DNA from: an uncultured cyanobacterium
GTDB taxonomy: Bacteria; Cyanobacteriota; Cyanobacteriia; Cyanobacteriales; Cyanobacteriaceae
Assembly: GCA_963710605.1 (NCBI GenBank)
Contig: CAVQBA010000002.1
Span: 64,001-128,000, forward strand
Reading direction: 5' to 3'
Length of the DNA stretch: 64,000 nucleotides
Shown one piece after another: positions 1,994 to 30,100 of this stretch. Numbering within the stretch: the first letter of the stretch is position 1; the number at the start of each line of letters is the position of its first letter. The position numbers were made by a program, and so were the translations under genes. The notes below the pieces were generated by a model. It made no database searches, was not told where the DNA came from, and saw only the letters and a program-made list of their open reading frames with translations.

Positions 1994-2575
1994 ATGGTTA
2001 GTGAAATAACACCACCAAAAACTAAACTCTCTCCTGAAGAATATCTAAAAACGGAAAAAACAAGAGATATTAAACATGAATATATAAAAGGAGAGATATA
2101 CGAAATGGCAGGTGCAAGTGATTCTCATGTAACAATAGCAGGTAATCTATTTTCTTTATTAAAAAGTTTTTTGCGAGGAAAAAATTGCCGAGTTTATATT
2201 GCGGATATGAAAGTACAAATTGAAAGAACTAATGTTTTTTATTATCCTGATGTGATAGTTACTTGCGATTCTAGAGATCGAGAATATTCTTATTATAAAA
2301 AGTATCCTAAATTAATTATTGAAGTTTTATCTCAAAGCACCGAAGCAAAAGATAGAGGTAATAAATTTGCTAATTATCGTCAACTAGATACCCTTGAAGA
2401 ATATGTCTTAGTTTCTCAAAATCAAATGGAAGTAGAATGTTTTCGACGTAACCAAGATAATTTATGGGTATTGCATCCTTATCAGAATCCCGATCAATTA
2501 GTTACTTTTTCTAGTCTTGATTTTAGTTTTTCTTTGACTGATTTATACGAAGATGTTGTTTTTGAAGCACAATAA
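1994..2575 (+). CDS. Uma2 family (PD-(D/E)xK) endonuclease-like protein
   Basis: HEYIKGEIYEMAG, YYPDVIVTC, IIEVLSQSTEAKDRG motifs. Confidence 0.92.
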   Translation: MVSEITPPKTKLSPEEYLKTEKTRDIKHEYIKGEIYEMAGASDSHVTIAGNLFSLLKSFLRGKNCRVYIADMKVQIERTNVFYYPDVIVTCDSRDREYSYYKKYPKLIIEVLSQSTEAKDRGNKFANYRQLDTLEEYVLVSQNQMEVECFRRNQDNLWVLHPYQNPDQLVTFSSLDFSFSLTDLYEDVVFEAQ

Positions 2576-2673
2576 GTCTAAAGTATTTCAAGCAGTAGAG
2601 AATTAATCTGTCTTTGGTATTTTAAATAGCTAGAATATGTTGTAACTAAGTTTAAATAAAAATAAAATCCGTT

Positions 2674-3789
2674 ATGAATTGGTGGTCTAAACTGAAAAAA
2701 AATCCTTTAGCCAGACTAGGAGCGATTATCTTAATTTGTTTTTATCTACTGGTGATTTTCGCTGATTTTATTGCTCCTTATAATCCTTACTCGGCTCAAG
2801 ATAACGGCTCTTTGTTACCACCGACTACTATTTATTGGCGTACTATTGACAAACAATTTATTGGTCCTCATGTTTACCCCACTATACAAGGTAAAACCGA
2901 TCTGGATACAGGCGATCGATTTTTAGAATCAGATTACAGCAAACCATCACCAATTCGTCTTTTTGTCAAGGGAGATCCCTATCAATTTTTAGAAATCAGA
3001 TTACCGTTACCGCCAAAATTTGCAGAAGTAGAAATCTTTTCAGGTATAAAGCTCGATCGACATTTATTTGGCACTAAAGGGGAAGGAAAAATCAATCTTT
3101 TAGGTACAGACGAACAAGGAAGAGATCAACTCAGTCGTTTACTCTATGGCGGTAGAATCAGTCTTTTTATCGGTTTAATTGGTATTTTGATCTCTTTTCC
3201 GATCGGCTTACTAGTAGGAGGAATTTCAGGCTATTTTGGCGGAATTGTTGATAGTATTTTGATGAGATTTATTGAAGTATTGATGAGTATTCCGGGGCTT
3301 TATTTACTGATCGCTTTAGCGGCGGTTTTACCAGCAAGTTTGAGTAGCGCACAACGATTTTTCCTGATTATTTTAATCACATCTTTTATTAGTTGGTCAG
3401 GACTTGCTAGAGTAGTTAGAGGGCAAGTTTTAGGGCTTAAGCAACAAGAATTTGTCTCCTCAGCAAAAGCGATCGGTGCTAATCCTTTTTACATTATTAT
3501 CAAGCATATACTACCGCAAACCGCAACTTATGTTGTCATTTCAGCTACTTTAGCTATTCCCAGTTTTATCGTCGCCGAGGCTGTTTTAAGTTTAATTGGT
3601 TTGGGTATCCAGCAACCCGATCCAAGTTGGGGTAATATGTTATCTTTAGCCACGAATGCTTCTATTTTAGTATTACAACCTTGGTTGGTTTTTACCCCTG
3701 CTATTTTGATTGTTTTAACTGTGCTTTCTTTTAATTTATTAGGCGATGGTTTACGTGATGCGTTAGATCCTAAAAATAGTCAAAATTAA
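2674..3789 (+). CDS. Peptide/nickel ABC transporter permease (OppC/DppC-like)
   Basis: LLGTDEQGRDQLSRLLYGGRISL, EAA-like loop, GDGLRDALDP end. Confidence 0.92.
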   Translation: MNWWSKLKKNPLARLGAIILICFYLLVIFADFIAPYNPYSAQDNGSLLPPTTIYWRTIDKQFIGPHVYPTIQGKTDLDTGDRFLESDYSKPSPIRLFVKGDPYQFLEIRLPLPPKFAEVEIFSGIKLDRHLFGTKGEGKINLLGTDEQGRDQLSRLLYGGRISLFIGLIGILISFPIGLLVGGISGYFGGIVDSILMRFIEVLMSIPGLYLLIALAAVLPASLSSAQRFFLIILITSFISWSGLARVVRGQVLGLKQQEFVSSAKAIGANPFYIIIKHILPQTATYVVISATLAIPSFIVAEAVLSLIGLGIQQPDPSWGNMLSLATNASILVLQPWLVFTPAILIVLTVLSFNLLGDGLRDALDPKNSQN

Positions 3790-3826
3790 TGATAAGTGCT
3801 TATATAAATTAAGTTATCAATTTTTT

Positions 3827-3854
3827 GTAGGGGTGCAAGGTTTGCACCCTCTAT
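3827..3854. repeat. GTAG-type REP palindrome
   Basis: GTAGGGGTGCAA-GGT-TTGCACCC. Confidence 0.7.
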
Positions 3855-3922
3855 TCAGCGGAGGTTCAACATTATCAAAGCAAAATCATACCAAATTCAA
3901 AAAATAAAAATATAGATTAAAT

Positions 3923-4498
3923 TTAGAAAAAATATCGAAGATAAAAACGGAGATAAAAAACTAGATAAATGGTAGCGTTAAATAAAACTAAACCTTTTGC
4001 CCACCAAGAATTAAACTGATTATATAAGAAAAAAGTACTAATATTTACTAATAATAATTCAACTAAAGATACCCATTTAGCATAATGACGAGAATCCCAA
4101 TAAGAAAGAGGGCTAATGAAGCGGTAATTAGTTAAAGGGACAAAATGTCGATGAGCATCATCATGATGGACAGGTAGATCGAATAGGCAATGAACAATCA
4201 TACTAATCAACATAATCTTTACCCAATTCCAATGATAAAAATGACAAATCCCGACTCCTACTAAACATAAAACGATCGAGTTAGGAATTGCAAATATATT
4301 TTGCCAATAATCAGTAAAATATACCTCAGACCAAATTTTATTAGCTGGTATCTTACCAATAAATTTAGCCCAAAAATAAAACCAAAAAATTGCAATATCG
4401 GGTAAAATACTACCAATTATAATCGGTAAATAAAACTTATTTGTGTCTTCTTTACTAAGTAAAAAAAGATTGATAACTACATGACTAGGAGTATTCAT
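3923..4498 (-). CDS. Membrane protein, possibly a metal-dependent hydrolase
   Basis: MNTPSH, LPD, HxxxD..HHDDAHRHF motifs with hydrophobic segments. Confidence 0.65.
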   Translation of the reverse strand: MNTPSHVVINLFLLSKEDTNKFYLPIIIGSILPDIAIFWFYFWAKFIGKIPANKIWSEVYFTDYWQNIFAIPNSIVLCLVGVGICHFYHWNWVKIMLISMIVHCLFDLPVHHDDAHRHFVPLTNYRFISPLSYWDSRHYAKWVSLVELLLVNISTFFLYNQFNSWWAKGLVLFNATIYLVFYLRFYLRYFF

Positions 4499-4508
4499 AA
4501 ACAGTTGA

Positions 4509-4615
4509 TATAGCAGTAAACAAGTACGTTATGACATCTATATCTTCTTTCCCCTCTTTTCAAAGGAGGGGTTAGGGGTGGTTGAATGTCAAGAGTAAAA
4601 TCATTATTTGCTATA
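4509..4615. repeat. TATAGC...GCTATA-bounded MITE-like repeat; reverse-complement relative at about 16778-16855
   Basis: Shared TATAGCAGTA...GACATCTA and GGAGGGGTTAGGGGTGGTTGAAT blocks. Confidence 0.75.
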
Positions 4616-4649
4616 ACCGATAACTATTAACTATTAACTATTAACTACT

Positions 4650-5267
4650 TTAAGAAGATATTCTTTGAGCAAACATTTGTCTTAAAACATGAGCGGGGTC
4701 AACATGATTGCCATTATATTTAAGTACCCAATGTAAATGAGGGCCTGTTGTTCTACCCGTCATGCCAATTCTACCAATTCTTGCACCAGAAGGAATTTTT
4801 TGTCCTTTAAACAAAACAATACCACCGCTTCGATCGACTAAAGCTATACCTTTAGAAGTATTCTCTACACTACCCATCAAATGACAATAAGTATGAGTCC
4901 AGCTACCAGACTGGATTTTGATCATCGTACCACAATTAGTATTATCTGATAAATGAACAATCTGCCCACTCCACCAGTTACGAACATAACTACCTAAAGG
5001 AGCGGCTAAATCTAGTCCATTATGAAAACTTCTTCTTCCTGTCACAGGATGAATACGATAACCAAAACCCGATGTATAAGCCTGAAAATTCTCGACAGGA
5101 AAAGAGGCGTTTCGCCAAGAAGTTGAATTTTTAACGTTTACAGCCTGTGCTTGTACAGATTTTGTCTGAAGTGGATTAACAATATCCGTGGTAACAACTG
5201 TTGTAAGACTTAACAATAAACCTAATAGAAATAGGTATTTATTCCTGAACTTGATCAATTTAGACAT
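4650..5267 (-). CDS. M23 family peptidase
   Basis: HNGLDLAAP (HxxxD), YCHL, TGPHLH; N-terminal signal peptide. Confidence 0.92.
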   Translation of the reverse strand: MSKLIKFRNKYLFLLGLLLSLTTVVTTDIVNPLQTKSVQAQAVNVKNSTSWRNASFPVENFQAYTSGFGYRIHPVTGRRSFHNGLDLAAPLGSYVRNWWSGQIVHLSDNTNCGTMIKIQSGSWTHTYCHLMGSVENTSKGIALVDRSGGIVLFKGQKIPSGARIGRIGMTGRTTGPHLHWVLKYNGNHVDPAHVLRQMFAQRISS

Positions 5268-19749: not shown

Positions 19750-20898
19750 TTAAGTGCGTTCTTCGATCGAAATATAAGATACTTCTCTTTGACCTACATA
19801 ATCCTGAGTCGGACGAAAAATACGATTAACACCGATTTGTTCTCTCCAATGAGCTAACCAACCCGCAACACGGGAAATAGCAAACATAGGCGTAAATAAA
19901 TCAGGCTTAATACCTAACTTGCGATAAACTAATCCAGAATAAAAATCAACATTAGGATAAATACCTTTTGCACCTAATCTTTCACTAACTACTTTTTCTA
20001 CTTCCAAAGCAATTTCGTAATATTGATCGTAGCCTTTTAATTCAAATAATCTTTCTGCTAACTCCTGTAATATAGTAGCACGAGGATCTTTGACTTTATA
20101 AACTCGATGACCAAAACCCATAATTTTTTGCTTATTGTCAATCAAGTTATTAATATAAGGGCGGACATTTTCTACCGTCCCAATTTTGTCAAACATGATT
20201 AATACTTCTTCATTCGCACCACCATGTAACGGTCCAGCTAGAGTACCTACAGCCGATGCTACGACTCCGTAAGGATCAGTTAAAGTAGAAGCAGTTACCA
20301 TCGCCGAAAAAGTAGAAGCATTCATTGTATGTTCAGCATGAAGCATCAAACAAACATCAAAAATTCTCGCCTCTAAAGGTTCAGGTACAGTTTCTGTTAA
20401 CATATACAAGAAGTTTCTTGAGTAATTCAATTGATCATCAGGCTTAATCGGATCGTTTCCTTCACGCATTTGAGCGAATGCCGCTACCATTGTCGGAATT
20501 TTAGCCAGTAAACGGACTACCGCATCTCTTATATAGTCTTCATTTGTGAGAGTACGACGAGAATAAAATAAACCCAATGCCGCCGCCGAAGTTTGTAAAG
20601 CATCCATCGGATGACCACTTTCAGGGAAACATTTCATCATATCCCGAATATGATATTTGATTCGACGATGACGAGTAATTTCGCTTTCAAAACTATCTAG
20701 TTCATTTTTAGTTGGTAATTTACCCCAAATTAGTAGATATGCAGTTTCTAAAAAAGTACTATGTTGAGCCAGTTCGATTATATTAATACCTCTATACTCT
20801 AAAATACCGTTTTTGCCATCTACATGACTAATACTTGATTGAGCGACAGGTATTCCCTCTAAGCCTGGTTTGTACTCACAAGCAATTGTAGTTGCCAT
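19750..20898 (-). CDS. gltA: Citrate synthase
   Basis: LHAEHTMNAST, GPLHGGANE, IMGFGHRVYK, YPNVDFYSG. Confidence 0.97.
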   Translation of the reverse strand: MATTIACEYKPGLEGIPVAQSSISHVDGKNGILEYRGINIIELAQHSTFLETAYLLIWGKLPTKNELDSFESEITRHRRIKYHIRDMMKCFPESGHPMDALQTSAAALGLFYSRRTLTNEDYIRDAVVRLLAKIPTMVAAFAQMREGNDPIKPDDQLNYSRNFLYMLTETVPEPLEARIFDVCLMLHAEHTMNASTFSAMVTASTLTDPYGVVASAVGTLAGPLHGGANEEVLIMFDKIGTVENVRPYINNLIDNKQKIMGFGHRVYKVKDPRATILQELAERLFELKGYDQYYEIALEVEKVVSERLGAKGIYPNVDFYSGLVYRKLGIKPDLFTPMFAISRVAGWLAHWREQIGVNRIFRPTQDYVGQREVSYISIEERT

Positions 20899-21560
20899 AT
20901 AATTAATTCCTCGATAATAAACTTAAAATAGTTGTAAATAAAGTTATTTGTCCGATCGCATTTTTTTAGTGATCATTAAAAAATAACTATCAAATAATTA
21001 GATTGAAATACTTGTTGTTTAGACAAAAACAATTTAATTAATTTTTGAGTATTTTGACCTCTAGTTTGAAATTAGAGATTGATGTAAATTGTCAATTTAT
21101 TGAGCAACATTCTATTATAGTCATCACTAAACTTAATCTATCTGTGATCAAATTATCAGTTTGAGTAAAAATATATCTAGACTTACTAATTTTACCAACA
21201 CTTAAACTAATAGTCGTAACGCTTTATTTTTTAGTTTCCCATCTGTTGTCGTAAAATGTAAAAATATTTTGCTTAATTATTTTGTGTTTGTCTGATTATT
21301 TTGCGATTGCAATTAAAACGAGGCTCAAAATATATATTCTTGTAGTACAAATAAACAGTTGAGAAGCGAAAACTTACTAATTATGGTTGGATTTAACTAT
21401 CATTAATTAAATTTTATTTTTTCTTCCTGACGAATTAAGCTGATAGGCTCATTTTTCGCAGAGTAAAATTTTGACTGTTTTTTTGTGTAATTATTAAAAT
21501 GTACAATCGATAAATTATTCAACACTAATCTATATTTGTCATTAAAAATTAGCTGAATAA

Positions 21561-22058
21561 TTAACTAGTCATCCACTTAGGGGAAGTTAGTAAAAATAAT
21601 TCACATTCGCCTAACGGATTGTCAAAATTAATTAATTCTAGACCAATGATACCAGCTTTTTTCAGTTTTAATCTGTTTTGTGTTTTTCCCCAAATTAATA
21701 ATTCTGCCCATCTTGTCAAATCTGGCTGATGTCCAACTAAGGCTATCGAAGAATTGTCTGGCGAAAAATTAGCTTGTTGTAACCAATTAATCCATTCTAA
21801 AATATTCCCTTGAGGTTGTAGAGTTGGATATTCAACTAGTTTTTTAGTTAACTCGGCTTGTTTAAGAATGATAGCTGTTTCTTTTGCTCTTCGGTAAGGG
21901 CTTGTCAAAATTAAATCAAAATTGAGATTCAGACTAACTAATTTTCTGGCTATTTTTTGTACTCTGACTATTCCTTTAGTCGTCAACATTCTGTCTGAGT
22001 CTTCTTTATCTACTTGTTTTAATTCTGCAATCCCATGGCGAATCAAATAAATTTTCAT
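21561..22058 (-). CDS. sixA: Phosphohistidine phosphatase SixA
   Basis: LIRHGIA, TSPYRRAKETA, LVGHQPDL. Confidence 0.92.
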   Translation of the reverse strand: MKIYLIRHGIAELKQVDKEDSDRMLTTKGIVRVQKIARKLVSLNLNFDLILTSPYRRAKETAIILKQAELTKKLVEYPTLQPQGNILEWINWLQQANFSPDNSSIALVGHQPDLTRWAELLIWGKTQNRLKLKKAGIIGLELINFDNPLGECELFLLTSPKWMTS

Positions 22059-22276
22059 GTTTTGATAATAAACAATAAATACTATATTAATGGAGAACGC
22101 TTCAAAAGAGTACGAAGGTTTCTAGAGCAACAGAATGCCTACTAATACGAATACAGAATACAGTGAAGATGATAGATAGATAGATAAAAACACAACCCGT
22201 GATAGATTCTTGCACTGTCCGCAATTATTCGAGAAGAATTAAGACGACACCTAATCCCTAATCCTCATGTTCACTG

Positions 22277-23722
22277 TTAACCTAAATTATTTTGAACCGC
22301 CTTAACCAAATAATTAGTCCAATGGTTGACTAAATCTACATTTTGTGCCTCTACCATTACCCGAATTAAAGGCTCTGTACCCGATGCCCTAACCAAAATT
22401 CGACCTTGATCACTCATATCTTTTTGAGCTAAGGAAATTGCTTCTTGAATAGCAGTTGATTCTTGCCAATGTAAACGTTTTTCACGATCGTTAACTGTAA
22501 TATTATGTAAAATTTGTGGGTAAGGCTCAAAGCTATCATCAACTAAAGAAGCCAAATCTTGTCCTTGTTGAGTAACTAAAGCAGTTAATTGTAAAGCAGT
22601 CTGCAAACCATCTCCTGAAAAATGATGATGGTGACAAAGAATATGCCCTGATTGTTCGCCTCCTAACATTGCTCCTGTTTCCCACATCGAAGCTTGTACA
22701 TTTTGATCACCAACGGAGGTACGAATTAATTCACCGCCGAGTTTTTTCCAAGCTAATTCAAAACCTAAATTAGCCATAACAGTACCGATGAGTAAATTAT
22801 TAGGCAGTAATTGCTGTTGTTTTAATGCTTTGCCCCACAGATAAAGAATATAATCACCACAGACTACTCTTCCTTTTGTATCTACTGCCATAACTCGATC
22901 GGCATCTCCATCAAAAGCATAACCCATATCGGCATTATGTTCTGCTACTGCTTTATTTAAAGTTTCTAGGTGAGTTGAACCACAATTGACGTTAATACGA
23001 TCGCCATCTGCTCGATCATGTAAACAAATTACCTCAGCACCTAAAGCCCGAAAGACTTTTGGGGCAAGCTCAACACTAGCACCCCATGCTAAATCAAGAA
23101 CAACTTTCAGACCTTTAAAAGTCGTATTTTCCTGAAAAGCAGACTGTAAAAAATCAGCATAAAACCGAGTTAAGCTATGTTGATTATAAACTTGACCACA
23201 TTTTTGTTCTTGTAAACTAATCTCTCCTGCTACGTATTGACGTAAGGTAGTTTCAATCGCATTTGTGATTGATTTATCTAATTTAGTACCATTACCACTA
23301 AAAAACTTAATTCCGTTGTCTTGCGGTGGATTATGACTAGCTGAAATCATAATAGCACCTAATGCTTCTGTCGTTTTCGCTAGATAAGCTACACAAGGAG
23401 TAGGGCATAAACCCACATTCCAAACTTCAAAACCCATCGAAGTTAACCCAGAAGCGATCGCCATTGCTAACATATCACTGGAATTACGAGAATCTTGACC
23501 GATGATAATAACCTTAGAATCAACAACTAATTTTTGCCAAACCTCTCCTGCGGCTAAACCAACATTTAAAGCTAAATGGGGAGTTAGTAATTCACCTACT
23601 TTTCCTCGAATACCATCAGTACCAAATAGTTGTTTTGGTAAAGTGTATTGACTACTATTAGAATTACCTTCAGTAGAAGCAAAAGAGCTATTTTGTTGAT
23701 TTTCACTCATAAAAGCGACCAT
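22277..23722 (-). CDS. glmM: Phosphoglucosamine mutase
   Basis: [36 protein letters not shown]. Confidence 0.95.
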
Positions 23723-23731
23723 ATTTGTTAT

Positions 23732-23740
23732 TCCTCACAC
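23732..23740 (-). promoter_or_regulatory. Yfr1-complementary site (GTGTGAGGA) at the glmM ribosome-binding site
   Basis: 9-nt complement of the Yfr1 loop motif, 9 nt before the ATG. Confidence 0.6.
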
Positions 23741-24315
23741 AATAAATTATTTATTTTAAAATCGATAGCTAAAAATTGTGAATTAATTCACAAATTCTGA
23801 ATTTAAATGCCGAATCAATTAATCCACACAGAAAAATTATTTTTATTATCTATATTTGTTTGAACTAGATAACTTTTAGCTATCAAAAGTTATACTTTGA
23901 TCGTTAATATTTAATCAACTTCTCAAAAATCGTTTTGATGTTATACTATAAAATAGCCTGTAATTTAGCATTTTATGAGCGATTAACCAAAAAATTATGA
24001 AGCTATCATAGCCTATAATTTACACAATTGCGAAAGTGACACAAGAAAAACATAAAATGCCTTAATAATTATCGGTGAAAACAACAGTAACTATTGTTTA
24101 GAATAAAAGCTAAGCTAGTCAATCGTACTCTAGATATTAGCTTTGTAAGCGTAGGTGGATGTGGATACTTAGCCCAGAAACAAGTTGCTAACTTCTTGAT
24201 TTATCTTAATGTGTAAAGAAGACTCTCACTATAAAGTGAGTTCGAGTAGAGTTACCGAAGGTAAAGGCGGACGTGCCTTCTAGTGGAGAGATGAATTTAC
24301 ACCAACAAAAAAACA

Positions 24316-24344
24316 TTGCTATAGCAATTCCTTCATGCTAGACT
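24316..24344 (+). promoter_or_regulatory. Sigma70-like promoter inside the element
   Basis: TTGCTA-17 bp-TAGACT with an extended -10 TG. Confidence 0.55.
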
Positions 24345-24350
24345 AAATAA

Positions 24351-24554
24351 ATACCGTCAACAGGTATCTACGGGGAGTCCCCCCGAAAGTCACGGTTAAC
24401 CATGAACTGGCATGGTGCTTGGGAACAAGTGGATGTATGACTGTCGTTGGATGGTCAGCAAGTGCAAACCTCGCAAGAGAGTAGGGAGGTAAAGGCAACT
24501 CTACCTAAGAATCCCCCGTTATAGCCCGTAGGGTTTAGTGGCGGGAGTCGTCAA
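24351..24554 (+). ncRNA. TnpB omegaRNA/reRNA-like structured RNA
   Basis: About 200 nt, GC-rich, a series of hairpins ending in the right-end hairpin + TCAA. Confidence 0.6.
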
Positions 24555-24577
24555 TAAAATAAAAAATATAGTCGAAG

Positions 24578-24601
24578 AAGTGGGGAAACCCCGCTTTTTT
24601 T
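24578..24601 (+). promoter_or_regulatory. rimP leader hairpin/attenuator
   Basis: AAGTGGGG-AAA-CCCCGCTT plus T-tract just upstream of rimP, typical of the rimP leader motif. Confidence 0.7.
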
Positions 24602-24630
24602 ATTGCTTATTATTTATCATCTTATTAAAA

Positions 24631-25095
24631 ATGACCAATCCTGTAACAGTATCAATTAAAAAAATAGCCGAGCCAATAGCCAAGCAACTTGAATTAGAAA
24701 TAGTTGATTTAATTTTTCAAACCAATAACAATCCTGCTAACTTGAGAATCGATATTCAAAGTTTTTCAGGAGAGACTAGTCTAGAAAATTGTGAAAAAAT
24801 GAGCCGTTTACTAGAAGAAGCGTTAGATCAAGAAAATGTTATTCCCTGTGCCTACAATCTAGAAGTCTCTAGCCCTGGAATTGGAAATAACCTCACGACA
24901 AACCAAGAATTTGTAAGTTTTAAAGGTTTTCCGATCGTAGTTGAGACTAATACCGTTTTCAAAAAAAAGACTCAATGGCGAGGAACTTTACACGGTAGAG
25001 ATGAAGAATCAGTCTTAGTTAATTCTAAAGGAAAAATAATCAAGATTCCTCGAGAGATTGTTACTAAAGTAGAATTAGAAAACGCCAGTGCTTAA
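24631..25095 (+). CDS. rimP: Ribosome maturation factor RimP
   Basis: CEKMSRLLEEALD, YNLEVSSPG; operon position; ATG at 24631 preferred to GTG at 24538. Confidence 0.93.
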   Translation: MTNPVTVSIKKIAEPIAKQLELEIVDLIFQTNNNPANLRIDIQSFSGETSLENCEKMSRLLEEALDQENVIPCAYNLEVSSPGIGNNLTTNQEFVSFKGFPIVVETNTVFKKKTQWRGTLHGRDEESVLVNSKGKIIKIPREIVTKVELENASA

Positions 25096-25108
25096 CTTAA
25101 TTTAATAA

Positions 25109-25501
25109 CTGTCATTTCAATCACTAGGTAAGAAATTAATATTCATCGAAAAATTTGAGTAATAAACCCACCTCGAATTACTATTTTAGGCTAAGACTCA
25201 TCCGCTACACATAAAGCGACTTGTACTACGATGCCCTCAGTGGTAGTCGAAGTAGGTAAAAAGTAGGCTCAAGTGTTCAATAAATTAAACTATAGCTAAA
25301 TGAATTTATAATTACACTTTTTGCGTTAATGAAAGTCTCCTCTTTGAAGGGGAAAAGCTGTCACCTGAATTCATTTGGCTGTGCTTGTAAGCTTTGTGAG
25401 AAACACGAGGAGTTGGCGAGAGTCTAAGTAATCACAAATTTATTCGGCTATAATACTTTACCCGACCAAAAAAATTAACTCACTTTTATTTGAAATAACC
25501 A
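25109..25501. repeat. Nested repeat/MITE-like insertion between rimP and nusA
   Basis: Outer GTCATTTCAA...TTGAAATAAC; inner ATAGCTAAATGAATT...AATTCATTTGGCTGT inverted repeats. Confidence 0.55.
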
Positions 25502-25597
25502 TTACTGTCAAATGTAGTTTTTTTTATGAGCGTATGAGTTAATCTACGCTATTTTTACACCGTTCAATTATCAACTATTAATTATCAACTATCAATT

Positions 25598-26776
25598 ATG
25601 AGTATTGCTAAATTACCGGGCTTGAAAATATTAATCGAAGAAATTTGTCGAAGTCATAACTTACCACAACCTACGGTAGAAGACGCTTTGAGAGAAGCTC
25701 TTTTTAAAGGATACGAACGTTACCGTCGATCGAAAAGAGCGAGTTTTAGTGAAGAATTTACCCCTGAATATTTTGAGAATGTTAACGTTAAATTAGATTT
25801 GAAAGAAGAAGGATTTCAAATAATCGCAGTTAAAACTGTCAGTGAAAACGTCACCGATGAAGATCATCAAATTGCCCTAGAACAAGTACAAGAAAACGAT
25901 AGCGATATTCCTGTAGGAACAGAATTACTAATCGATGTTACACCAGAAAAAGATGACTTTGGTAGAATGGCGGCAGTACAAACTAAGCAAGTACTGCAAC
26001 AGAAACTTAAAGAACAACAACGGTTGATGATTCAGCAGGAGTTTAACGAATTAGAAGATACAGTACTTTCGGCTAAAGTTCTTCGTTTTGAAAGACAATC
26101 AGTAATTATGACCTTACAGAGTGCTTATGGCAGACCAGAGGTAGAAGCCGAATTACCACGCTATGAACAAATGAATAGTGATAATTACCGTGCTAACGCA
26201 ACTTTTAAAGTTTATCTCAAAAAAGTTAGAGACGGGGCGTACAGAGGACCTCAATTGATTGTCTCCCGTGCTGATGCAGGATTAGTTGTCTATTTATTTG
26301 CGAATGAAGTTCCTGAGATTGAAGAAGAAATAATTGATATTGTAGCGATTTCACGTGAAGCAAACCCTAATATTTCTAAAGATGGCAACAATAAAAGTAA
26401 CTCTAAAATCACGGCTAGAACTAAAATAGCGGTTGATACCACCGAAGAAGAAGTCGATCCTGTAGGAGCTTGTATTGGTGCTAGAGGTTCTCGGATTCAA
26501 GCAGTCGTGAATGAATTAAAAGGCGAAAAAATTGACGTTATTCGTTACGCCGAAGATCCAGCCTCCTATATTGCTAATGCTCTAAGCCCTGCTAAAATTG
26601 ATACCGTAGAATTAATTGATGAAGAAAATAGAGAGTCTTTAGTTATTGTACCTGATAATCAATTTAGTTTAGCGATCGGCACTAAAGGGCAAAATGTTCG
26701 TTTAGCCGCACGTTTGACTGGTTGGAAAATAGACATTAAAACTAAGTCTCAATATTATGATGACCAAGAGGAATAA
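25598..26776 (+). CDS. nusA: Transcription factor NusA
   Basis: FGRMAAVQTKQV, DPVGACIGARGSRIQ, AIGTKGQNVRLAARLTGWKIDI. Confidence 0.97.
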   Translation: MSIAKLPGLKILIEEICRSHNLPQPTVEDALREALFKGYERYRRSKRASFSEEFTPEYFENVNVKLDLKEEGFQIIAVKTVSENVTDEDHQIALEQVQENDSDIPVGTELLIDVTPEKDDFGRMAAVQTKQVLQQKLKEQQRLMIQQEFNELEDTVLSAKVLRFERQSVIMTLQSAYGRPEVEAELPRYEQMNSDNYRANATFKVYLKKVRDGAYRGPQLIVSRADAGLVVYLFANEVPEIEEEIIDIVAISREANPNISKDGNNKSNSKITARTKIAVDTTEEEVDPVGACIGARGSRIQAVVNELKGEKIDVIRYAEDPASYIANALSPAKIDTVELIDEENRESLVIVPDNQFSLAIGTKGQNVRLAARLTGWKIDIKTKSQYYDDQEE

Positions 26777-27014
26777 AATAAAAAACGATCGTCGTTGTCT
26801 TAGTTGTCATAAAATTAAACAAAAAAAAGATTTATTAAGAATTGTGAGAGTGTATCCTGATCATACAATCAATATCGGACAAGGAATGGGACGTTCAGCT
26901 TATATTTGTCCTGAAGAAAACTGTGTTTTGAATGCTCAAAAAAAATTATCACGAGCTTTAAAAACTAAAATACCTGATTGTATATATCAACAACTTTGGC
27001 AAGAATTATCTTGA
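26757..27014 (+). CDS. ylxR: YlxR/DUF448 RNA-binding protein
   Basis: RRCLSC, GRSAYIC; between nusA and infB. Confidence 0.92.
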   Translation: MMTKRNKIKNDRRCLSCHKIKQKKDLLRIVRVYPDHTINIGQGMGRSAYICPEENCVLNAQKKLSRALKTKIPDCIYQQLWQELS

Positions 27015-27137
27015 TCTTAATCAGGATAAATGATCCTAGACTAATAAGAGTGTAAACTATAAAAATAGACAATTATTAATCTGATCAAACCTGAACTTAA
27101 AAGTTATAATATTTAGTAGAAGTAGAGCAATTTGTGA

Positions 27138-30100
27138 ATGAAAAAAGTCAGAATATACGATTTATCAAGGGAACTAAAACGAGAAAACAAAGACATATTA
27201 CAGATATGTTCAGAGTTAAATATTGAGGTAAAAAGCCATAGTAGTAGCGTGACAGAGTCTCAAGCAAAAGAAATTAAACAAGCTGTACAAAAAGATAGTC
27301 CAACAACATCATCTTTGAAAAAACAGCCTCAAAGTAACGGCAGTACAAAAGAAGTAAAAAACAAATCTACATCGAATTTGAAATCTAAAAGTATTAAAAA
27401 ACCAGAAATCCTCGGGGTGTACAAAAATAATTCATCGACTAATAGCGACAGTGCCAATAGTTCTTCTTCGGTCCTGTTTTACTAACACCACCTCGTCCTA
27501 ACTCAGCTAAAATCTCAAGCAATTCTAGCTCTCAAGTTGATAATGGAGAACAAAAACAGACAACAACTGCGAGTATCTCCAGTAACACTCTTCAACAACC
27601 TCCTGCTCGAGATGATTCTAATTCCAATGACAATGACAGCAAAACACAGTCTAGTAGCCTAATCTCAGGGTTAGTCAAACCACAAAGACCGAAAATTAGC
27701 GATCGAAAGTCGAGTAATGGTGATGAATCAGGAGATTCTAGTTCGACAACCGACGCAGTTAAACCTAAAATAAAAATTAACAAAAATAAAGGTAACCAAC
27801 GTCGCCAAAACAATAACCGTCGTTCAGACGATCGAGGTGAAACAACTGATGTAGGTGTAAAAGACACAACTTTGACCACCGAATCTTCTAGTGTAGCAAC
27901 ACCAGATAAACTAACCACCAAAGAAGACAAAGCTGAAGCAGAACCAAAGAAATCAACTCCTAAACTTAAATTACAAAGTCCTCCTCAACGTCCAGTTAAT
28001 AAAAGTAAACAAAATCTAGATATTGATGATGACGATTTAGACGATAAAAATGAACTAAACGACGATGATGATGACGTCGATACCGAAGTTCTTTTACTAG
28101 ACAAACCAACAATTAGAAAACCGAAACAAAAAAAATCCAACGAGGACGGTAAAAGTACTTGGGATGACGAAGAAGAAGAACGTCGTTCAGGAGTTAAAAA
28201 AGATACTAAAAAAGCGAAAAAACGTCGCTCTACTTTAATTGATGAAGATGATGATTTTGAAGATTATGGTGAAAATAATGGACAGGATAATGATGTTGTT
28301 AATTTAGCCTTAGTTCGTCCTTCTCAACCTGTATCTCAAAAACCGAAAAATACCGACAAGAGTCGCCCAGCTAGAAAACCAAAATCTAAACCGACTAAAT
28401 CTGAAGCTAAAACAGAAAGAAAAGTCAAGCCAGAAAAAGAACAATTACCAGAATTTATTGTACTTAAGAAAAATCCAACTATTCGGGAGTTGGCTGATTT
28501 ACTCAATGTGCCTGATACTGATTTAATTAAAACTCTCTTCTTTAAAGGAATTGCAGTTAATATCACCGAAACATTGGATATCGAAATTGCCAAAATCGTT
28601 GCTCAAGAATTAGAAGTGGAAGTAATCACTGAAGAAGAAAAAGCTTCAGCGGCGAAAACACAAATGCTAACAGATAATGATTTAGAAAATCTTGAACATC
28701 GTCCTCCTGTGGTTACTATTATGGGACACGTTGACCATGGTAAAACAACTTTACTTGACTCAATCCGTAATACTAAAGTCGTTCAAGGTGAAGCAGGTGG
28801 TATTACTCAGCATATTGGTGCGTATCATGTTGATGTAGAACATGAAGGTAAAACTCAACAAGTTGTTTTCCTTGATACTCCAGGTCACGAAGCGTTTACC
28901 GCAATGAGAGCAAGAGGAACTAAAGTAACTGATATTGCTATTTTGGTTGTTGCGGCTGATGATGGTGTCAGACCACAAACTAAAGAAGCGATTAGTCATG
29001 CTCGAGCGGCTAAAGTACCGATCGTGGTTGCTATCAACAAAACTGATAAAGCAGGGGCTAACCCAGATAGAGTTATGCAGGAATTATCAGAACTAGAATT
29101 AGTTCCTGAAGACTGGGGTGGTGATACAGTTATGGTTCCAGTTAGTGCTTTAACAGGAGACAATATCCGTACTTTACTCGAAATGATTGTTATTGTTTCT
29201 GAAGTAGAAGAATTATCGGCGAATCCTAATCGTACTGCTAAAGGTACTGTTATTGAAGCTCACTTAGATCGTACCAGAGGTCCAGTAGCGACTTTACTCG
29301 TTCAAAATGGTACATTAAGAGTCGGTGATATGATTGTGGCAGGTTCAGTCTTAGGTCGTATTCGAGCGATGATTGATGATCAAGCCCAAAAAGTAGAAGT
29401 TGCTAGCCCTTCTTTTGCAGTGGAAATACTTGGTTTAAGTGATACTCCTTTAGCCGGTGACGAATTTGAAGTCTATCTCAATGAAAGAGAAGCTAAAACG
29501 ATCGCTCAAAGTCGGACTGAAGTGAAACGAGACACCAGATTAGAACAAGCTATGTCGTCTCGTCGTGTTACCTTAAGTACACTCTCAGCTCAAGCAGAAC
29601 AAGGAGAGTTAAAAGAACTTAACTTGATTATTAAAGGTGATGTTCAAGGTTCAGTCGAAGCTATTTTAGGCTCACTCAAGCAACTACCTCAAAATGAAGT
29701 ACAAATAAGAGTACTACTTGCAGGAGCGGGTGAAGTGACTGAAACAGATGTCGATTTAGCCGCCGCTAGTGGTGCTGTCATTATCGGTTTTAACACAACT
29801 CTAGCATCTGGTTCAAGACAAGCCGCCGAACAAGAAGGTGTAGATATTCGTGAATATAACGTGATTTACAAACTACTTGATGAGATTGAAGGGGCGATGG
29901 AAGGTTTACTCGACCCAGAAGAAATAGAAGAAAGTCTCGGTCAAGCCGAAGTCAGAGCTGTATTCGCTGTGGGTAAAAATGCTGTGGCAGGTTGTTATGT
30001 ACAATCAGGTAAGGTTGTCCGTAATCGCTTTATCAGAGTATTACGCAGAGGAAAAGAAGTTTACAGCGGTAATTTGGACTCTCTACGTCGTGTTAAAGAT

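Follow-up and report, generated by a model that had tools for sequence, protein, structure and literature searches.

A protein-less IS200/IS605-family element with a TnpB guide-RNA-like scaffold in the leader of a cyanobacterial rimP-nusA-infB operon

Introduction

Meers et al. state in the Discussion of their preprint (PMC10055086) that an omegaRNA, for TnpB to use in trans, is often encoded by palindrome-associated transposable elements (PATEs), which are protein-less IS200/IS605 derivatives; omegaRNA-encoding PATEs are noted in the same paper for Geobacillus stearothermophilus, and a PATE with IStron ends appears in a figure legend of a bioRxiv report (10.1101/2023.11.20.567912). IStrons are described in the latter as IS605/IS607 elements in which a group I intron competes with the omegaRNA. 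Here we analyze a 64,000-nt stretch of the genome of an uncultured cyanobacterium (GCA_963710605.1, contig CAVQBA010000002.1, positions 64,001 to 128,000; hereafter the window), and describe a whole non-autonomous element of the IS200/IS605 insertion sequence (IS) family at positions 24205..24554 (plus strand, 350 nt), which resembles PATEs and miniature inverted-repeat transposable elements. Its limits were set by alignment of copies and by the empty site of a sister copy. We read it as a protein-less derivative of a tnpB-only IS whose RNA may work in trans with a TnpB encoded on contig C4 of the same genome, and consider this reading about 80% probable. As read from the sequence, the element is inserted 3' of TTAT in the leader of the rimP-nusA-infB operon, and appears to keep the left end, the left-end promoter, a complete omegaRNA scaffold and a right end that finishes in TCAA.

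Like the PATEs of PMC10055086, as far as its text passages describe them, the element has no protein gene, has ends in common with tnpB elements, and would depend on TnpA and TnpB in trans. Compared with these same passages, the window lineage differs in being cyanobacterial, in belonging with another TnpB clade, and in its target, TTAT. Furthermore, its RNA has its own conserved extended -10 promoter, and a 5' hairpin (helix 1) outside the part of our profile that matches full-length elements. The general idea of a PATE-encoded omegaRNA is already published, and the window element adds one more instance. The promoter, the additional 5' hairpin, the strong covariation and the intron-split cognate guide gene described below go beyond what the parts of these papers available to us have in print, in part as predictions. 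Full-text literature searches returned no paper on this cyanobacterial guide-RNA-only lineage.

Two better characterized elements serve as further points of reference. With the ISDra2 TnpB-omegaRNA (8bf8, 8ex9, 8exa, 8h1j), the window lineage shares a partner protein that aligns at E ~1e-32 and keeps the RuvC acidic residues. It also shares an RNA that is encoded at the tnpB 3' end/right end and that derives its guide from the 3' flank; the partner protein is approximately 70 amino acids (aa) longer (476-485 versus 408 aa), and the scaffold comprises about 200 nt. The target in the window lineage is TTAT rather than TTGAT, the transposon-adjacent motif (TAM) of ISDra2. IS608 of Helicobacter pylori has TTAC as its target and TCAA as its right end. 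It resembles the window element in inserting 3' of a 4-nt target without duplication, in having subterminal hairpins, and in its TCAA terminus, and differs in the target (TTAT here instead of TTAC), in the left and right hairpins (dissimilar in the window), and in tnpA, which the full-length elements of the window's clade are without.

The element offers a clean natural case of a TnpB guide-RNA gene travelling without its nuclease, with covariation-grade support for the RNA fold and a target set by an exact empty site. Such elements reveal which parts of TnpB systems are modular, and supply, ready for use, a compact scaffold with its promoter for a TnpB clade (476-485 aa) that has been little studied. 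For annotation, they illustrate that an "orphan" structured RNA between cyanobacterial genes can turn out to be the cargo of a transposon and not a host regulator. On the host side, the element occupies the leader of an essential transcription/translation operon.

Results and Discussion

Relatives with and without tnpB

The original prediction, made from the window sequence, proposed an open reading frame (ORF)-less IS200/IS605 mini-element, and this is borne out by the homology of both ends to those of tnpB-bearing elements. (Genomes and loci of relatives are given as G and L numbers, and contigs as C numbers.) For the TnpB element of locus L022 in genome G009, the left end is 88% identical to that of the window over 93 nt and the right end 90% identical over 41 nt, and these two matches bracket a 485-aa ORF with OrfB_IS605, Cas12f1-like_TNB and HTH_OrfB_IS605 domains. 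In nine loci the right-end block of the window either follows the tnpB 3' end directly or overlaps it; the homology stops there after GTCAA (window position 24554), and the flanks beyond are unrelated. The only ORFs to overlap the element itself are one of 51 aa on the minus strand and an extension of rimP from a GTG, which is spurious; neither is credible. The only tnpB similarity of the element is in an interior block that aligns with the part of the L015 tnpB gene coding for the C terminus. The suggestion that tnpA was lost from the element does not fit its relatives, as none of the seven full-length clade members examined has a tnpA between the left end and tnpB.

Five of these seven full-length elements have a small divergent ORF between the left end and tnpB, which is absent from L055 and L087. 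At L083 (2946-3080, G020) it encodes 44 aa with a ribbon-helix-helix domain (CopG, PF01402, E 1.4e-5), and the same block is found in L022, L085, L088 and L090. This CopG ORF may regulate the element.

Units that have no ORF but show their parts in the order of the window copy (left end, promoter, RNA of ~205 nt, right end) are present in G009 (four units), G020, G063 (two), G160, G041 (two) and G018. A strict pattern of invariant columns is matched at 23 places in named Crocosphaera and Prochloron records, in a scan that may miss genomes near the window's. None of these 23 loci has a tnpB within 2 kb (tblastn, E <= 1e-3), five of them being cut by contig ends. Pieces of the element are multi-copy in relatives and often occur at contig ends. 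The element part of the Crocosphaera copy L066 matches 4, 3, 3, 5 and 9 places in five Crocosphaera genomes. Sister copies have unrelated flanks. The family is mobile, having multiple copies at unrelated sites as well as the empty sites described below.

Two of the sister loci have unusual arrangements. At L045 (G009, ~164-1724), a mini-element and a tnpB element from a different clade (28% identity) meet tail-to-tail, such that each has the right end of the other as its flank. At L027 (G017, 1073-1205), a solo left end with a promoter remnant, 80% identical to window positions 24200-24333 and without the RNA module, is located between ORFs that, from sequence alone, are PspA/Vipp1-like and flavoprotein-like.

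Element ends and the TTAT target

The left end (24205..24315, plus strand) contains a long imperfect hairpin at 24211-24302 (GTGTAAAG...CTCTCACTA / TAGTGGAGAG...TTTACAC). Folded as single-stranded DNA, the left end is more stable than expected (z -2.5), with 4 of 200 shuffled sequences equally good. The right end (24510..24554, plus strand) consists of GAATC, a hairpin (CCCCCGTTATAGCC/GGTTTAGTGGCGGGAG) and the terminus GTCAA. It aligns in the nine tnpB loci, among which the hairpin is conserved with compensatory G-C to A-T changes in the stem. Subterminal hairpins are therefore present at both ends of the window copy.

Homology with the other copies begins at position 24200, and not at 24211, where the element had been placed directly after a TTAAT sequence. 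In the named Crocosphaera and Prochloron records (23 loci, one of which is truncated), 22 of 22 readable copies have TTATC before the left end, as do 7 of 7 full-length elements of the clade. The motif is also present at the window copy, at L023, L024, L027 and L059, and at six copies with short left ends, with the base that precedes TTAT being variable. For L034 and L045 of G009, the upstream sequence is unlike both types of left end.

The limit between target and element comes from the exact empty site of the L024 copy (G009), which is found in its sister genome G004, where the two flanks abut at C1:3686214/3686215. Because the left flank of this empty site ends in TTTTAT (the right flank starts with GACATT), the C that follows TTAT is borne by the element, and the target is TTAT. 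Applied to the window, the rule of TTAT plus an invariant C places the target, or TAM, in the left flank at 24201..24204 (plus strand, outside the element), and the element at 24205-24554. The predicted start at 24211 and the predicted TAM TTAAT are thus both superseded, and TTAAT itself lies inside the left end. The window flanks (...TTTAT on the left, TAAAAT... on the right) differ, so no repeats flank the element. Neither terminal inverted repeats nor a target-site duplication was found, and the exact empty site of the sister copy is also free of duplication.

The site in the rimP leader is itself empty in relatives. G001, of the same genus, has the pgm-rimP synteny of the window with 77% identity, but is shorter here by ~350 nt, and G006, G010 and G013 are also without the element in the rimP leader. 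The expected empty site exists, and the sequence is hence no native leader, although the TTAAT junction proposed for this site was not upheld. Empty sites were also sought for two other copies. In G004 and G012, the right flank of L023 was recovered but not the left. No simple empty site was obtained for L066, the flanks of which are on different contigs in the other four Crocosphaera genomes.

A conserved RNA scaffold from the 3' end of one tnpB clade

The interior of the element holds an omegaRNA-like scaffold (24351..24554, plus strand). Its first four helices are H1 (24351-24367), H2 (24371-24385), H3 (24399-24416) and H4 (24417-24430); these are followed by GGAT (24431-24434), which pairs long-range with the ATCC of GAATCC, by inner helices, and by the terminal hairpin. 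As a single sequence, 24350-24606 folds with a z score of -3.0, which none of 200 shuffles equalled, and this fold contains ATACC/GGTAT, CGGGG/CCCCG, ACCATG/CATGGT and TGACTGTC/GATGGTCA. A larger region of 406 nt gives z scores of -3.8 for the plus strand and -3.4 for the minus strand.

Stronger constraints come from an alignment of eleven ORF-less copies from five genomes, namely the window copy and 10 others (A1; 10 distinct rows). RNAalifold finds 44 consensus pairs in A1, of which 19 have compensatory changes on both sides. With this structure fixed, 98.2% of the cells are paired, as compared with 38-42% when the partners are slid by 1-3 columns, and the covariation score is 0.376 as compared with 0.04-0.06. 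Shuffled alignments reach the observed values in 0 of 500 cases for four of the five measures, and in 25 of 500 for the fifth, the count of further pair types. An invariant G-U pair, together with other G-U pairs, shows that the RNA corresponds to the plus strand. Of the 44 pairs, 41 are kept in the window row. The motifs named in the original prediction (the hairpins, TTGCTA-17-TG-C-TAGACT, the GC-rich unit and the right end) are all present in the sequence, and the architecture, which recurs in relatives with compensatory base changes, is beyond chance.

An nhmmer profile built only from the ORF-less copies of A1 matches the 3' ends (last ~170-180 nt) of nine distinct tnpB genes of one clade, with E-values from 5.8e-16 to 4e-7 (ten locus rows, L022 and L084 being the same gene). 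L056, a tnpB locus from a different clade (27% identity), gave no match. Because the profile matches the tnpB 3' ends of that one clade, we assign the interior RNA to the omegaRNA region of this clade, in agreement with the TnpB-omegaRNA-like RNA first proposed. In the full-length elements the omegaRNA scaffold and tnpB overlap over the final ~170 nt of the gene. The window region from about 24360 to 24500 aligns with the C-terminal coding part and the downstream scaffold of tnpB in L015. The matches at tnpB genes start at profile positions 21-24, so that helix 1 lies outside the sequence-level part held in common with full-length elements. The window copy scores 144.5 bits with the profile, and the other copies 100-209 bits.

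From the known layout of omegaRNAs, the predicted guide would be the 3' flank TAAAATAAAAAATATAGTCG (24555..24574, plus strand), which is A/T-rich and of low complexity. The window's own genome has no second target for this segment with TTAT or TTATC directly 5' and up to 3 mismatches in 20 nt.

Other RNA identities were considered and rejected. At E <= 10, Rfam lists sroD (23 bits, gathering score 50) and SAM-II (20.5 bits, gathering score 44) in the region 23700-24900, both of which we regard as chance matches. ARAGORN finds neither a tmRNA nor a tRNA in 20000-30000.

The predicted left-end promoter

Between the left end and the RNA, a putative promoter can be read from the sequence at 24316..24344 (plus strand), with TTGCTA as the -35 element (24316-24321), a 17-nt spacer, and the extended -10 element TG-C-TAGACT (24336-24344). 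The predicted promoter of the original note gains support from the other copies, where a conserved motif also precedes the RNA. Here TGnTAnnAT lies ~8 nt upstream of helix 1, with TC replacing TG in a single copy. The -10 region of the window copy, TGCTAGACT, retains the TG and, within the hexamer, positions one, two and six. It was not listed by a simple consensus scan because it scores 8 of 12.

The block around this promoter (24286-24336) recurs just upstream of tnpB in L011 and L017, and adjoins tnpB genes of the window's own genome, for example at C6:390564-390615. In full-length elements the left-end promoter would normally drive tnpB; it is kept in the window element as a candidate promoter for the RNA.

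TnpB and TnpA partners in the same genome

The window unit is present as a single copy in its own genome (3.9 Mb). A DNA search at E <= 0.001 for a near-identical autonomous parent in this genome found only the element itself, and blastn with word size 7 and E up to 10 added only matches of ~50 nt or less, which include weak left-end and promoter matches beside other tnpB/tnpA genes. A search for the parent by means of the element ends therefore succeeds in relatives, where tnpB-bearing homologues are found, and fails for a near-identical parent at home.

Potential partners are nonetheless abundant, with ~25 tnpB matches and 7 strong matches to Y1 tnpA (PF01797). A Y1 (HUH) TnpA of this genome may mobilize the ends described here. 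The genome as a whole has a heavy IS200/IS605 load, and many of its right ends have the same GAATC-hairpin-GTCAA layout.

The profile has exactly one other match in this genome, at C4:1257240-1257349 (E 1.2e-6, 28.5 bits), which is the 3' end of a tnpB gene at C4:1255957-1257387 (476 aa). The TnpB encoded elsewhere that had been postulated for the RNA thus has a counterpart, the only one of the matching clade in the genome. The C4 TnpB is 59% identical to the G009 protein and aligns to ISDra2 TnpB (8bf8, E 1.1e-32), and all three of its RuvC motifs, located by the ISDra2 residue numbering, conserve their acidic residues. TTATC also precedes the left end of the C4 element.

The guide-RNA region of the C4 element is interrupted. 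At approximately profile position 136, its scaffold is split by a group II intron (RF00029, 53 bits) carrying a 629-aa ORF with RVT_1, RVT_N, GIIM and HNH domains (reverse transcriptase (RT)-maturase-HNH). The rest of the scaffold follows downstream of the intron, and then a GAAT...TTCAA right end. This intron (locus L055, ~2358-5104, outside the window) interrupts the only tnpB of the cognate clade in the genome. As in IStrons, an intron of the self-splicing type is located within the guide-RNA region, here that of the single cognate tnpB element of the window's genome; unlike in IStrons, the C4 intron is of group II, encodes an RT-maturase-HNH protein, and is inserted in the scaffold without being part of the element architecture.

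Proposed mechanism and its weak points

In the mechanism we propose, which is drawn from the model of IS200/IS605 maintenance of Meers et al. (PMC10055086), transcription would start near 24351 from the element's promoter. The RNA would fold into the scaffold and read over the right end into ~20 nt of the flank (24555-24574), which would become the guide. It would stop at the pre-existing leader terminator near 24601, giving an RNA of ~250 nt. The C4 TnpB (476 aa), as the sole cognate-clade TnpB of the genome, would load this RNA in trans. After excision by a Y1 TnpA, TnpB would cut the resealed joint of TTAT plus guide, and recombination would then copy the element back.

Several observations weigh against this reading, and some of them also speak for the element being an inert relic. 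In that case the insertion would be dead, with an RNA that has ceased to be made or to be recognized by any TnpB, and would persist only because excision is rare. The observations in question are the occurrence of the unit as a single copy; the state of the RNA, which may be impaired because 3 of the 44 pairs are broken, including two of the three of helix 8, and because at this helix the CCTAG block common to the 10 other aligned mini copies is replaced; and the -10 hexamer TAGACT, which is weaker than the TAnnAT of the sister copies. The only cognate tnpB is, moreover, both diverged and interrupted by the intron at its 3' end. Identity between the C4 TnpB and the clade members of mini-rich genomes is no more than 58-64%, and with its own scaffold matching the profile so weakly (28.5 bits), cross-recognition is uncertain. 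Set against the relic are the 41 pairs that are kept, the intact termini (C after TTAT; GTCAA), the intact -35/TG/-10 layout, and a profile score that is still within the range of the other copies. On balance, we regard an inert relic as a serious but doubtful explanation, and favor the guide-RNA element with a partner in trans.

Further points against that preferred reading come from the right end, from the distribution of partners and from Rfam. Folded as DNA, the right-end hairpin shows no unusual stability (z -0.38). A TnpB of the clade is encoded in five of five other mini-bearing genomes as compared with 10 of 40 relatives, a co-occurrence that speaks for the preferred reading but is only suggestive because the genomes are interrelated and were chosen by the feature itself. 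G018 has a mini-element, and no clade TnpB was found there with this query at E <= 1e-120. A search for sequencing runs over 23700-25700 listed none. Finally, Rfam 15 has no match anywhere in the window at the gathering score, which means that no curated model covers the RNA and is not evidence against its being an omegaRNA.

A broader version of the proposal can be put forward only tentatively. Promoter-equipped guide-RNA-only elements might form an independent transposon lineage that parasitizes one TnpB clade across several cyanobacterial families. Dozens of copies are known, and none of the 23 scanned loci has a tnpB nearby. The scaffold of this lineage would have been freed from the tnpB reading frame, with the fold kept by compensatory change, and would have gained the 5' hairpin and the promoter. 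If so, the one cognate TnpB of this genome, the guide-RNA gene of which is split by the intron, would have no uninterrupted guide RNA other than that of the window element.

The element in the rimP leader

The element is located in the spacer between a phosphoglucomutase-family gene (pgm; 22277-23722, minus strand; Pfam), which is the neighbor on the 5' side of rimP, and rimP itself (24631..25095, plus strand; Pfam RimP_N, E 1.8e-17; ATG at 24631). It lies in the leader of the rimP-nusA-infB operon, with nusA on the plus strand beyond rimP (Pfam). Its GC content stands out, with 0.51-0.53 over 24350-24549 (100-nt windows) as compared with 0.20-0.29 at 23700-24149 and 24550-24749.

Two host features frame the insertion. 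Upstream, the consensus scan lists a promoter-like site at 23920..23947 (plus strand; TTCTCA-16-TATACT with TG, an extended -10), the -10 block of which is 92% identical over 24 nt to same-genus G001. The site is ~680 nt upstream of rimP and is probably, by this conservation, the native promoter of the operon, in which case the element would sit within the operon leader. Downstream, and outside the element, is a terminator-like hairpin with a T-run (24574..24601, plus strand; 12 pairs, 5 G-C in the scan) that belongs to the native rimP leader and is kept in G001, G006, G010 and G013, all of which are without the element here.

This arrangement could be taken to mean that the element has been exapted as a regulator, with its outward promoter or the 350-nt structured leader insert setting expression of rimP-nusA-infB. 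The placement between a conserved promoter-like site and a conserved leader terminator fits such a role, as does the orientation of the element's promoter toward rimP. We nevertheless consider it improbable, in that a strong terminator-like hairpin separates the element from rimP, in G001 and four further relatives the operon does without the element, and insertion beside genes is the default for such elements.

Still less probable is that the RNA guides a domesticated, nuclease-dead TnpB-like repressor to the rimP leader, in the manner of the TldR-type systems that have been published (PMC10705468). The predicted guide is indeed the rimP leader itself. Since TTAT is 350 nt from the guide match, however, the occupied site is no proper target; the cognate TnpB, in addition, retains its acidic RuvC residues, and the flanks of sister copies are unrelated.

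The idea of a riboswitch, or of a structured leader RNA native to the rimP operon, which a GC-rich, structured sequence directly upstream of rimP might suggest, is refuted by the empty sites in relatives (the sequence is absent from the syntenic G001 spacer and from G006, G010 and G013), and is also opposed by the homologous RNAs at unrelated loci of other genomes and by the lack of an Rfam match.

The leader hairpin at 24574-24601, which is located 30 nt upstream of the rimP start codon and is preceded by a conserved TCAAAAAnT-like block, may be a leader attenuator of rimP-nusA-infB.

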